From a virus (lineage: Duplodnaviria; Heunggongvirae; Uroviricota; Caudoviricetes): 64,000 nucleotides of DNA. The first letter of the stretch is position 1. Each line of letters begins with the position of its first letter. This document shows positions 803 through 2,927 of this stretch, one piece after another. The notes under the pieces are model-generated. The model was given only the letters and a program-made list of their open reading frames with translations. It had not been told where the DNA came from and searched no databases. A program made the position numbers and the translations under genes. Where the stretch lies: positions 90,650 to 154,649 of the IMG/VR virus record IMGVR_UViG_3300037418_002962. The stretch is one strand, 5' to 3'.

Positions 803-1516
803 ATGAAGAGCTTTAGAGAAATCCTTGAAGAAATTGTAAAGCATCTAGGAGTTGATAATCCATTTTTTATCCAACATGGACCAGATGAGGAAACCATTAC
901 CCATGAACATGGAATGCAGCTACACAAAAGACCAGATAAACACATTACTGAAGATGAACATAAAGCAATGCACAGTTACAGTGAAGGATTTTACAGAGAT
1001 ATTAACCATATTTTAAGAAATCAAAATTCATGGAAGAAAATGCGTAATGACATTGGCTACAAAAAAGATAAAATTGACAGGAACTTAAAAGATTTTAAGG
1101 AATATCATATTCCAAATATAGATAAGACAATCTCTCATCATACCACGGAACATCCTGCCACTGTATGGAGAGGGATTAATCCAGAAAATATAAAAACAAA
1201 AGAAGGCACTGTATTATCCGATAAGGGATTTACTTCTACTACATTACATCCTGCAATAGCAATAAAATTTGGCAGAGAATCTTTGCCAATGGGAAATAGA
1301 GATAATATACATATAGCAAAAATTAATCTACCAAAAGGAAGTAAAGCAGTATATCTTAATCAGAACAATCTTTCCAGTAATAAAAGGGAGCATGAAGTAT
1401 TACTTCCAAGGAACTCTAAGTTCCGTTACGAAGGTTCTAGTACTCATCCACATCCTAATAATGACTATGAAACTGTTACTGTACATCATCTTACACATTT
1501 ACCAGAGGAATCATGA
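803..1516 (+). CDS. capsid-targeted ADP-ribosyltransferase paralog 2
   Basis: N-term MKSFREILEE (T4-CTS-like); YSEGFYRDINHILRN, ATVWRGI, DKGFTSTTL, REHEVLLPRNSKFRYEG = PF03496-type motif set (Y..IN..LR / R / STS / ExE). Confidence 0.8.
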   Translation: MKSFREILEEIVKHLGVDNPFFIQHGPDEETITHEHGMQLHKRPDKHITEDEHKAMHSYSEGFYRDINHILRNQNSWKKMRNDIGYKKDKIDRNLKDFKEYHIPNIDKTISHHTTEHPATVWRGINPENIKTKEGTVLSDKGFTSTTLHPAIAIKFGRESLPMGNRDNIHIAKINLPKGSKAVYLNQNNLSSNKREHEVLLPRNSKFRYEGSSTHPHPNNDYETVTVHHLTHLPEES

Positions 1517-2256
1517 AATCATTCAAGAATTACTTAAAAGAAAATACAGAAGAACATTTAGGTTTCCATGATCATAATGCCAGAGTAAAAAATTCTGATG
1601 ATTCAGAACCTTGGGTTAAACATTTCAATAATAATCCTGGACTTGAGCATCATGAAATGCACAGTCTTAGAGTTTATTCTGGCACTATTGATAATGATAT
1701 TGGCACAGAACATAAAGACACTGCTTATAGGGCTATTAATAATCAGCTTAGAAATTCTGGAAGTACTGAAGATTCATTGAAAGATATTAAGGTCTCTGAC
1801 CATATAAAGAATATTGACTCTGTTCTTTCTAAACATACCACAATGAAACCTGCCACAGTATGGAGAGGATTGGCAGGACTTTCAAATACTCATGAAGTAC
1901 CTAATCAATTAAATGCAATGAAACCGGGAGATACTTTTCATGATAAGGGATTCGTTTCCACAACTGTTGAACCATATACTGCAGATTCCTTTTCAAGGAC
2001 TTATCATAAAAATCCAAATGATATAACAAAAATGGAAAGACACTTTGCCAAGATTCATATTCCTAAAGGAAGTAAGGCATTATATCTTAATAGCCATAAA
2101 AGAGATCTAGGTATTGGCTATGAACATGAAGTTCTTCTACCAAGAGGAAGTAAATTCAGGTATGAAGGAAAGACTGTTCACCCAACAAGTCTTCACGGAT
2201 ATCAGAATTATGATGAAGATCATATCCATCACTTAACATATCTTGGAGACAAATAA
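1513..2256 (+). CDS. capsid-targeted ADP-ribosyltransferase paralog 3
   Basis: MKSFKNYLKE N-term; YRAINNQLRNSG, ATVWRGL, DKGFVSTTV, YEHEVLLPRGSKFRYEG; ATGA overlap with upstream gene. Confidence 0.8.
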   Translation: MKSFKNYLKENTEEHLGFHDHNARVKNSDDSEPWVKHFNNNPGLEHHEMHSLRVYSGTIDNDIGTEHKDTAYRAINNQLRNSGSTEDSLKDIKVSDHIKNIDSVLSKHTTMKPATVWRGLAGLSNTHEVPNQLNAMKPGDTFHDKGFVSTTVEPYTADSFSRTYHKNPNDITKMERHFAKIHIPKGSKALYLNSHKRDLGIGYEHEVLLPRGSKFRYEGKTVHPTSLHGYQNYDEDHIHHLTYLGDK

Positions 2257-2927
2257 TGCAATCCTTCAAAATACTTCTAGAAAAAATTGGTGTTTCTAAT
2301 CACAAAGTAAACTATAACTATGATTATGATTTTGGTCATGGAAATTTAGATAAAGTATATAAAGCCCATGCAAGAATTCATGATAGTTCTAAAATTCTTT
2401 CACCAGAAGAAAAGGAAACTTTGCAGGTCTATATAGGAACTGGACACTATGATATTAATCGTTTTCATAGAACAGGTAAAGTTTATCCAGCAAGTCAGGG
2501 CGGTTACAATAGAAAAGAAATAAAAGAACACACATCAAATTTAGACAATATAATATCTTCTCATCAAACCAAACAAAATGCTACAGTATGGAGAGGTATT
2601 CAACCTAATGTTGCCAAGGGCATGAAATTAAAACCTGGAACAATACTTCATGATAAGGGATTCGTTTCTACAAGTCTTAATCCATCAACAGCAGGTTCAT
2701 TTGGATATCAATCTGGAGAAACTCATGTTTTTAGAATTCATTTACCAAAGGGAAGTAATGCTTTTAGGCCATTAAATCATAATATAGGTAAAACAAGAGA
2801 ACATGAAGTAATTCTTCCAAGGAATTCCAAGTTTCGTTACGAAGATGGGCACTTACATAAAGACAAATGGGGTTCTCCGTTTTACGTACATCACTTGACA
2901 TATCTTGGACAACATCATGAGGAATGA
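2256..2927 (+). CDS. capsid-targeted ADP-ribosyltransferase paralog 4
   Basis: MQSFKILLEKIG N-term; YDINRFHRTG, ATVWRGI, DKGFVSTSL, REHEVILPRNSKFRYED; TAATG junction. Confidence 0.8.
   Translation: MQSFKILLEKIGVSNHKVNYNYDYDFGHGNLDKVYKAHARIHDSSKILSPEEKETLQVYIGTGHYDINRFHRTGKVYPASQGGYNRKEIKEHTSNLDNIISSHQTKQNATVWRGIQPNVAKGMKLKPGTILHDKGFVSTSLNPSTAGSFGYQSGETHVFRIHLPKGSNAFRPLNHNIGKTREHEVILPRNSKFRYEDGHLHKDKWGSPFYVHHLTYLGQHHEE

Follow-up and report, generated by a model that had tools for sequence, protein, structure and literature searches.

Alt of phage T4, an ADP-ribosyltransferase (ART), is made late, packaged in the head, trimmed by the protease gp21 (ITE-6 and LTE-619) and injected into the host (PMC5694885; also PMC5512222). 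For the internal proteins of T4, loading onto the scaffolding core is directed by the capsid-targeting sequence (CTS) of 10 residues, MKTYQEFIAE, which is cleaved by gp21 (PMC8442874); in the CTS, residues 4 and 7 are important for targeting, and 8 and 10 for its processing (PMC9026906), and the cargo behind it is otherwise highly diverse (PMC9026906, PMC3012670). Injected phage proteins act before phage gene expression and are a frontier of research on phage–host conflict. Here we describe a 64,000-nt stretch of DNA (IMG/VR record IMGVR_UViG_3300037418_002962, positions 90,650 to 154,649; the window) from an uncultivated, distant T4-like myovirus with a genome of about 244 kb. It carries a family of ART genes, three of them in tandem at 803-2927 beside the baseplate gene gp25. 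If these ARTs are packaged as we propose, the locus merges two T4 paradigms, Alt as a single packaged ART and the CTS-bearing anti-restriction internal proteins, and scales them up.

ARTs of the Alt/VIP2 clade near T4-like baseplate genes have already been noted and read as packaged (PMC5512222, PMC9503650). When 21,191 viral proteomes were surveyed, about 30% of myoviruses had ARTs and about 44% of phage ARTs were inferred to be packaged in the head; the extreme counts were 'at least 10 ARTs' for Bacillus phage G and 12 for Bodo saltans virus (PMC9503650). Packaged phage ARTs and CTS cargo are both known; what is new here is their combination, its scale and a CTS-bearing Acb1 gene. In searches of the open-access literature, where absence is no proof, neither a family of CTS-tagged ARTs nor an expansion of such size was found to have been described.

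The three complete genes follow gp25 on the + strand, with junctions that abut or overlap by 1-4 nt (TAATG, ATGA). The first (803-1516, 237 aa; PF03496 1.5e-21) encodes VWRG, FTSTT and EHEVLLPR, the second (1513-2256, 247 aa; PF03496 1.8e-21) VWRG, FVSTT and EHEVLLPR, and the third (2256-2927, 223 aa; PF03496 5.1e-18, phrog_802 Alt-like 4.8e-12) VWRG, FVSTS and EHEVILPR. A fourth gene is cut by the window edge (2-370, +; PF03496 5.3e-15, family hidden Markov model (HMM) 6.6e-29), so that only its C-terminal two thirds are present; its reading frame is open to the edge and its complete form, P0014, has 212 aa and starts MKSFKQLTEI. The start of the baseplate wedge gene gp25 (370-801, +; PF04965 GPW_gp25 1.1e-8, phrog_261 1e-28) overlaps the stop of this fourth ART. 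A first-pass annotation, made from the sequence alone, had called these same four open reading frames (ORFs) and had counted ten family members in the window, all with Arg, STS and both Glu. All four ORFs were found where it placed them. An HMM built from the three complete genes was run on every stop-to-stop ORF in the window and recovered exactly ten members, at E 3e-124 to 7e-29, with no further match up to E = 10. The motifs it had quoted are present, and the Arg, S-T-S/T and E-x-E residues are invariant in all ten aligned sequences. The other six members, all on the + strand and recovered by the family HMM, fall into two groups. Four are consecutive, beginning directly after gp6 (7051-8853; phrog_219 1e-135): 8853-9566 (family HMM 1.9e-46), 9563-10183 (leader MKTYKELLEK), 10170-10808 and 10805-11440, which is followed by gp7 (11477-14338). 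The remaining two are at 36163-36846, between gp14 and gp15, and at 37871-38497, between gp15 and gp16 (small terminase).

The identity of the family was examined by profile and by fold. All four ORFs beside gp25 match PF03496 (77.1, 76.8, 65.6 and 55.7 bits; gathering score 23.4) and two of the four also match PF01129. Their PHROGs labels are 'ADP-ribosyltransferase exoenzyme toxin' and 'Alt-like RNA polymerase ADP-ribosyltransferase', the Alt-like matches to phrog_802 lying between 4.8e-12 and 4.4e-7. The top PDB matches of the family profile were ARTs only, namely Vip2 (9.2e-22), CdtA (6e-20), iota-Ia (2e-17) and C3 (about 2e-11), with further matches to BECa, Vis, C3larvin, Plx2A, Certhrax, ExoS/T, SpvB, C2-I and HopU1. 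Aligned with Vip2, the family motifs pair as VWR/VYR, GFVSTS/GYMSTS and EHEVLL/EKEILL. An AlphaFold2 model of the 1513-2256 protein, made from a 28-sequence alignment (predicted local distance difference test score, pLDDT, 86.5; predicted template modelling (TM) score, pTM, 0.85), predicts an ART fold with a helical N-terminal part and a split beta-sandwich core. When the model was searched against the PDB with Foldseek, only C2/C3-type ARTs were among the 50 matches listed, with Vip2 at 4e-12 and C3bot at target TM-scores of 0.65-0.69; CDTa, iota-Ia, Certhrax and Vis were also matched. Comparison by hhalign with the T4 proteins (taken from NC_000866) linked the family to all three T4 ARTs: Alt (97.4%, E 9.3e-12, over Alt residues 410-515, covering the helical region, Arg and STS), ModB (E 8e-7) and ModA (E 1e-5). 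The ART assignment of the first-pass annotation was therefore upheld by the profile and structure comparisons it had proposed. This confirms that the family consists of R-S-E mono-ADP-ribosyltransferases of the Vip2/C3/Alt type with an intact set of catalytic residues, and from the conservation of these residues the paralogs are presumably competent enzymes.

Vip2, CDTa, iota-Ia and C3 are the best matches in both sequence and structure and share the Arg, STS and ExE elements and the fold; in single-domain size the family resembles C3, Vis and C3larvin. These toxins differ in being secreted by bacteria against eukaryotic actin or Rho, the binary toxins having an extra adaptor domain, whereas the family is presumably phage virion-associated and aimed at bacterial targets. 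Alt shares a homologous R-S-E ART domain, and its gene likewise adjoins a baseplate gene (T4 alt abuts gene 54). It is, however, a protein of 682 aa with an N-terminal region of about 400 residues, propeptides (MELITE and a 63-residue C-terminal piece) and no leader of the internal-protein type. The family members are single-domain proteins of 202-280 aa with a putative CTS of that type, number at least 28 instead of 1 and are closer in sequence to Vip2 and the C2/C3 toxins. MuF-ART fusions and polyvalent proteins also have ART domains delivered via the phage head (PMC9503650, PMC5512222), but there the ART is fused to a MuF or portal-associated module in a large protein, while the family members would be free-standing enzymes with a cleavable 10-residue leader. 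A Pfam scan of the window members found no second domain, MuF (PF04233) included, and MuF-ART fusions appear only among distant database matches (P0065, P0088, P0109).

The window covers only part of the ART locus. Its genes were placed, through a protein database, on a 243,684-bp Joint Genome Institute (JGI) metagenome contig, and an upstream 38-kb Logan contig of run SRR35144446 was found via the exact match of two database homologs that are absent from the window. The last 280 bases of this contig are identical to window 1-280. The resulting composite of upstream contig and window is 90,342 bp long and spans gp53 to gp16. Scanned with the family HMM, it contains 28 single-domain paralogs, all of which were called PF03496 in gene tables or recovered by the family HMM; as the composite covers part of the genome, 28 is a lower bound. 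Three follow gp53, then comes an Acb1 (PF23474) gene and then two more; eight precede gp5, six lie between gp5 and gp25 (the last being the edge-cut gene), three follow gp25 (803-2927), four follow gp6, one follows gp14 and one gp15. Together the 28 genes amount to about 19.3 kb, which is about 8% of the contig of 243.7 kb. All 28 have Arg, Ser-Thr and the second Glu, and S-T-S/T is kept throughout; the first Glu of E-x-E is found in 27/28, with Gln in the remaining one. A candidate 29th paralog, P0034 (233 aa), was rejected, being a 229-aa member called from an upstream start. The family size of ten given by the first-pass annotation thus holds for the window but not for the whole phage. Its remark that an arsenal of ten had not been seen described needs qualifying, phage G having at least 10 (PMC9503650), but with at least 28 here the unusual size holds more strongly. 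Phage G and other multi-ART jumbo phages share a large genome and many ARTs read as injected 'first-line' effectors (PMC9503650); compared with the published description of phage G, the present phage has at least 28 ARTs that belong to one lineage-specific family, have a common leader for their presumed delivery and lie in the structural module.

In a profile search of a 5.8-billion-protein database, 19 members were listed on a contig of 243,684 bp and about 22 further tight-family members (>175 bits) on short ENA and Logan contigs; none at that score was NCBI-sourced. An IMG/VR scan returned no close relative, its matches being mostly ART domains within large fusion proteins, and a scan of JGI metagenomes gave one small, unrelated contig and not the source contig. 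Megablast of window 1-8000 against 50,697 phage records found no relative at nucleotide level, and in the search for close sequenced phages an ART query gave 7 weak tblastn matches. The best portal matches in those records, Stenotrophomonas phage DLP6 and cyanomyoviruses, are only about 50% identical.

The feature that would tie the family to the head, one that the first-pass annotation had not noted, is its N-terminus. Nearly all members begin with a leader of consensus MK[ST][FYL]K[EQ][LIFY][LI]x[EKN], as in MKTFKELLKE, MKTYKELLEK, MKSFKNYLKE and MKRLKEFIAE; 26 of the 28 fit its register, one is shifted by one residue and one diverges. Position 4 is F, Y or L and position 7 is L, I, F or Y. 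A hydrophobic-x-E motif (mostly L/I-x-E) closes at residue 9 or 10 in nearly all 28, the exceptions being MKKFKEYAKL, MNRFREFIKN and the divergent MKFQEINELI, and L/I-x-E is present in 9/9 complete window members. At 803-2927 the predicted capsid-targeting leaders, all + strand, are MKSFREILEE (803-832, 10 codons, I-L-E / L-E-E motif; 23.9 bits by a position-specific scoring matrix (PSSM) of the leader), MKSFKNYLKE (1513-1542, L-K-E at positions 8-10; 24.0 bits) and MQSFKILLEK (2256-2285, L-L-E at positions 7-9; 20.8 bits). Conservation averages 2.71 bits per column in the leader, which compares with 2.6-3.6 in the catalytic segments and about 1.1-1.9 in the next 30 residues. The codons of the leader vary synonymously (TCA, TCC, TCT, TCG and AGC for Ser, five codons for Leu, both codons for Lys and Phe). 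Selection therefore acts on the peptide, and on the same codon diversity the leader was rejected as a DNA-level signal such as a recombination or ribosome-binding-site element.

The PSSM, trained on leaders of this phage only, was applied to 557 candidate starts of T4, taken from 33 kb of its DNA with a minimum ORF length of 40 aa. Ranks 1, 2 and 3 were taken by ipI (MKTFKEFTST), ipIII and ipII. The leader is also kept on ART orthologs in three other metagenomic phages. At the level of sequence, the leader is shown by these comparisons to be the equivalent of the T4 internal-protein CTS, with a putative gp21-type (L/I)xE cleavage motif. To our knowledge, the T4 internal proteins are not enzymes. 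IPI, IPII and IPIII share with the family the 10-residue leader (T4 MKTYQEFIAE, MKTFKEFTST) and its hydrophobic-x-E, followed by otherwise unrelated, fast-diverging cargo; in T4, IPI is an anti-restriction effector. They differ in being three proteins of 95-193 aa, described as highly basic (PMC8442874), while the present cargo would comprise enzymes of mixed isoelectric point (pI), an Acb1 homolog and a HEAT-repeat protein; the resemblance is one of delivery signal, not of homology to the internal proteins.

The leader is not confined to ARTs. Among the non-family ORFs of the window only one scores clearly for the leader, with 13.2 bits where the runner-up has 4.3: a HEAT/LRV-repeat protein of 504 aa from its ATG (4799-6313, +; PF01816 5e-17, PF02985 5e-11), which begins MKSFSQLLEA. 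This ATG was also chosen by an independent gene caller. The protein is unrelated to the ARTs; the repeats fall in its C-terminal half, the N-terminal half (about 270 aa) being uncharacterised. Its ortholog on another metagenomic contig (L037) adjoins gp25 and begins KTFKEILEA. It is likely to be a further head cargo. The second case is the Acb1 homolog (PF23474) inside the ART arrays upstream (163 aa; L033:10694-11185, window -15648..-15157, +), which has the leader MKTFKHFIAE (13.6 bits), nearly the CTS of T4. This suggests that a cyclic-nucleotide nuclease of the type that counters cyclic oligonucleotide-based anti-phage signalling (CBASS) is pre-packaged in the head. The Acb1 of T4, which we take to be the product of gene 57B, is without the leader (rank 56/557), but its gene directly adjoins ipI.

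The machinery that would act on such leaders is encoded in the window. The gp21-type prohead protease (48289-48939, +; phrog_207 4.7e-71), predicted to be the leader-cutting enzyme, itself begins MKLLRDYLTE-DIEYLTE, with motifs LTE-10 and LTE-17; T4 gp21 has LIE-9 (PMC9026906). The gp22-type scaffolding core protein (49474-50559, +; phrog_237 3.3e-67), the predicted docking partner, has 15 (L/I)xE sites. The major capsid protein gp23 (50622-51989, +; phrog_138 7.7e-161) has L-S-E-58 before TAPTNSVASGG, near the corresponding position of the T4 gp23 cleavage site, L-T-E-65.

The following course of events is proposed. The ART genes would be co-transcribed late with the baseplate, neck and terminase genes. 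During prohead assembly the 10-residue CTS of T4 internal-protein type would dock each ART onto the gp22 core, and gp21 would cut the leader off after Glu 9 or 10. The mature ARTs (about 22-27 kDa) would remain in the DNA-filled head and be ejected into the host with the genome. Like T4 Alt, they would start within the first seconds of infection to ADP-ribosylate host targets, drawing on the NAD+ of the host. The ExE motif predicts arginine side chains as acceptors, and the diverged paralogs would form a multi-effector arsenal for host takeover and/or counter-defence. The capsid-targeting leader would account for the place of the ART genes among virion genes. We put the probability that the family consists of late-made, head-targeted, gp21-trimmed and injected ARTs, with an Alt-like catalytic domain and internal-protein-style delivery, at about two in three.

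Several points weigh against this proposal. Packaging, cleavage and enzyme activity are argued from sequence analogy; injection and target diversity are inferred as well. The phage is distant from T4, as the portal identity of about 50% indicates, and conserved CTS recognition and gp21 specificity are therefore assumptions. T4 Alt, the one ART proven to be packaged, has no leader (rank 54/557). The N-terminus diverges in one family member (composite 20993-21658), and QxE replaces ExE in another. The ARTs, of about 22-30 kDa, have a pI of 5.7-9.5 in mature form, whereas the T4 internal proteins are described as small and highly basic. The head would also need room for some 30 kinds of cargo protein, each in a useful copy number. 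The genes at 803-2927 have no late-promoter box of their own in the window. Finally, the composite joins two assemblies, the JGI window and the Logan contigs of SRR35144446, through the 280-nt identical overlap.

A wider view of the same data is offered more tentatively: it is possible that the head as a whole is a multi-effector device, in which one transferable leader loads some 30 enzymes or binders (at least 28 ARTs whose substrate loops have diverged, Acb1 and the HEAT-repeat protein). As all such cargo would be injected before gene expression, host takeover and immune suppression would then be largely pre-packaged. This would amount to a phage version of a type III or type VI effector repertoire, with far more ARTs than are known from any other virus. 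If the proposal is confirmed, the viral ART repertoire described here would be the largest reported. Very distant T4-like phages would then have conserved the CTS mechanism of T4 and would use it for enzyme delivery, and the related ARTs, with their different specificity loops, would serve as a natural panel with which bacterial targets and anti-defence activities could be mapped. Beyond the T-even phages, the leader would be a ready-made protein encapsidation tag.

The genomic context bears on when the ARTs are made. The window is a late structural block of a distant T4-like myovirus, with gp25 (start 370), gp6 (7051), gp7 (11477) and gp8 (14369) followed by large fibre-like proteins, and then gp13 (34691), gp14 (35444), gp15 (37161), gp16 (38502), gp17 (38872), gp18 (41324), gp19 (43714) and gp20 (44423). 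Neighbours within the ART arrays overlap by 1-14 nt or sit a few bases apart. Neither sigma-70-like promoters (60 against 53±6.5 expected) nor terminators (3 against 6±2.4 expected) are enriched in 1-12000. Overall, the T4-type late promoter box TATAAATA shows no enrichment (12 observed, 10.5 expected), only the positions of sites just upstream of late genes being informative: exact + strand boxes lie 30-50 nt upstream of gp13, gp19, gp22 and gp23. The box at 34654-34661 (+), 30 nt upstream of gp13, heads the run gp13-gp14-ART-gp15-ART-gp16-gp17, which includes the ARTs at 36163 and 37871, and another precedes the opening gene of the block 485aa-gp53-ARTx3-Acb1 (composite 6335). For the genes at 803-2927, late expression is inferred from their tight coupling to gp5, gp25 and gp6.

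Late expression is equally part of an alternative in which the ARTs are not packaged and act in the producing cell like ModA and ModB, for instance on proteins of host or phage late in infection, the conserved N-terminus having another role such as translation initiation, folding or regulation. The homology to ModB and ModA detected by hhalign is consistent with this, as is the length of 200-250 aa, which resembles ModA and ModB (200 and 207 aa) and not Alt (682 aa). The similarity to ModA and ModB is, however, weaker, and T4 modA and modB lie among early regulators (srd, mrh, srh), whereas the family genes are embedded in late virion operons. The leader is conserved as a peptide in spite of synonymous codon variation, it singles out the three T4 CTS proteins among the 557 T4 starts, and it also heads unrelated proteins. 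We consider this alternative unlikely.

It is likewise improbable that the ARTs, although packaged and injected, have main targets other than protein arginines, some or all of them acting on nucleic acids or small molecules, by RNAylation or by NAD+ depletion. The R-S-E fold is compatible with such chemistry, and T4 ModB RNAylates host proteins (PMC10468400). The paralog at composite 25358-26077 (L032:16594-17313, +, window -984..-265) has the C3-type motif Q-H-E and a 19-residue C-terminal extension. The QxE motif of C3 exoenzymes is associated with non-arginine acceptors. This paralog may differ in acceptor specificity or be a non-canonical member. Nevertheless, ExE is kept in 27/28, and the closest solved relatives, Vip2, CDTa, iota-Ia and Vis, are arginine-specific protein ARTs.

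The divergence of the paralogs concerns a further alternative, that of redundancy. Pairwise identity among the 28 is 26-49% (median 36%), and proximity in an array brings no greater similarity (0.366 for neighbours, 0.359 for distant members; permutation p = 0.09). Every paralog ORF is intact despite this divergence. Recent tandem duplication was rejected on the maximum identity of 49% and the lack of extra similarity between adjacent genes; the expansion is old and has been maintained intact, and is not a recent burst. On the model, the variable regions are the linker after the leader (11-45), an insertion between helices, a distal hairpin, two loops that follow the Arg strand (120-133) and the STS helix (161-176), and the segment of 8-12 residues that precedes ExE (193-203). 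By sequence position only, the loop after STS was assigned to the phosphate-nicotinamide (PN) loop region and the segment before ExE to turn 1 of the ADP-ribosylating turn-turn (ARTT) loop. These two regions determine substrate choice in C3-like toxins. Since the paralogs differ mainly in ARTT turn 1, the PN-loop and the helical N-terminal regions, they probably have different targets. The opposite view is that the copies share one function, serving to evade host inhibitors, ADP-ribosylhydrolases or immune sensors able to recognise individual ARTs, or to suit different host strains. In keeping with this, there is hardly any difference between copies in the catalytic core or in the ARTT turn-2 segment EHEVLLPRNSKFRY, and host systems that counter viral ADP-ribosylation have been predicted (PMC9503650). 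Redundancy nevertheless seems quite improbable, with variation concentrated in the loop after the Arg strand, the assigned PN loop and the 8-12 residues before ExE (an assignment by position only), and with no pair above 49% identity and no recent duplicates that would point to an ongoing dosage race.

Three other traits of the paralogs were seen. They are unusually His-rich (8-13% of residues), and metal binding or pH sensing is possible. Their C-terminal strand HHL[TE][HY][IL][PG] is conserved. Many end in (I/L)PE, which is also compatible with the protease motif.

It is very improbable that the ARTs are instead tail or baseplate cargo, that is tip or tube-lumen effectors like the PAAR/VgrG proteins of type VI secretion systems: this would explain their clustering among gp53, gp5, gp25, gp6 and gp7, as 26 of the 28 genes lie between baseplate genes and a relative (L036) has a PAAR gene beside its gp5-ART block, but for two members the neighbours are the neck and terminase genes gp14, gp15 and gp16, the leader matches the T4 head-core targeting signal including the protease cleavage motif, we know of no tail-loading signal that resembles it, and T4 alt also adjoins a baseplate gene (gp54), yet Alt is a head protein.

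The design recurs on three further metagenomic contigs. Contig L037 has the order ART-ART-gp25-HEAT/LRV-ART-ART-ART and contig L038 has ARTx3 and then gp5, while the more distant L036 (NCBI assembly GCA_009712145.1) has gp53-ART-ART-X-gp5-PAAR. The leaders are kept on the HEAT ortholog as well as on the ARTs of all three. In the cultured phage DLP6, a single ART-like gene (337 aa) adjoins gp4 and gp2, near baseplate-hub genes. Given this shared placement in L036-L038 and DLP6, ARTs at baseplate-gene junctions are ancestral to the clade and were expanded in the phage studied here. Two other phage contigs were noted. L026 (IMGVR_UViG_3300042988_001121), of T4-like size at 178 kb, encodes a 278-aa ART (9719-10552) whose start, MKTFGQYIKS, resembles the leader, and the CTS-ART design may extend to other T4-like lineages. 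L019 (IMGVR_UViG_3300002821_000032), an unrelated 42-kb viral contig, has three tandem ARTs and a 935-aa ART-containing protein at 7688-13321, none of which bears the leader; tandem arrays of ARTs have therefore originated independently in other phages.

The protein encoded directly 3' of the 803-2927 array and before the HEAT protein (2968-4770, +; 584-600 aa, an independent call starting at about 3016) has no Pfam or PHROG match and no leader, and is unrelated to gp6. The idea that the two ORFs of 600 aa at 2968-4770 and 7051-8853 are paralogous partners of the ARTs was rejected: they are unrelated by BLASTP, and the second is gp6. Several ORFs, at 46156-47592 (+), 47592-48285 and 48941-49420, are interspersed with the genes for portal, protease and scaffold, in the region that contains gp67 and gp68 in T4. 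No family could be assigned to them, except for phrog_7884 on the last 54 residues of the 478-aa protein. This protein contains ILE-11 together with seven other (L/I)xE sites. The ORFs may encode components of the prohead core.

The load of mobile endonucleases in the structural module is unusually high. Four genes of homing-endonuclease/HNH type are inserted among the conserved structural genes of the window, at 6310-7020 (-) before gp6, 16440-16976 (+) after gp8, 40664-41293 (+) between gp17 and gp18, and 52037-53428 (-) after gp23, and a GIY-YIG gene lies upstream in L033. In the same upstream contig a minus-strand ORF of 45 aa with a TTG start (composite 6188-6325) begins MKSFKELPKE (20.7 bits) and abuts a TnsA-like endonuclease gene (L033 5746-6195); it may be the remnant of a leader gene disrupted by a mobile endonuclease, or a chance match.

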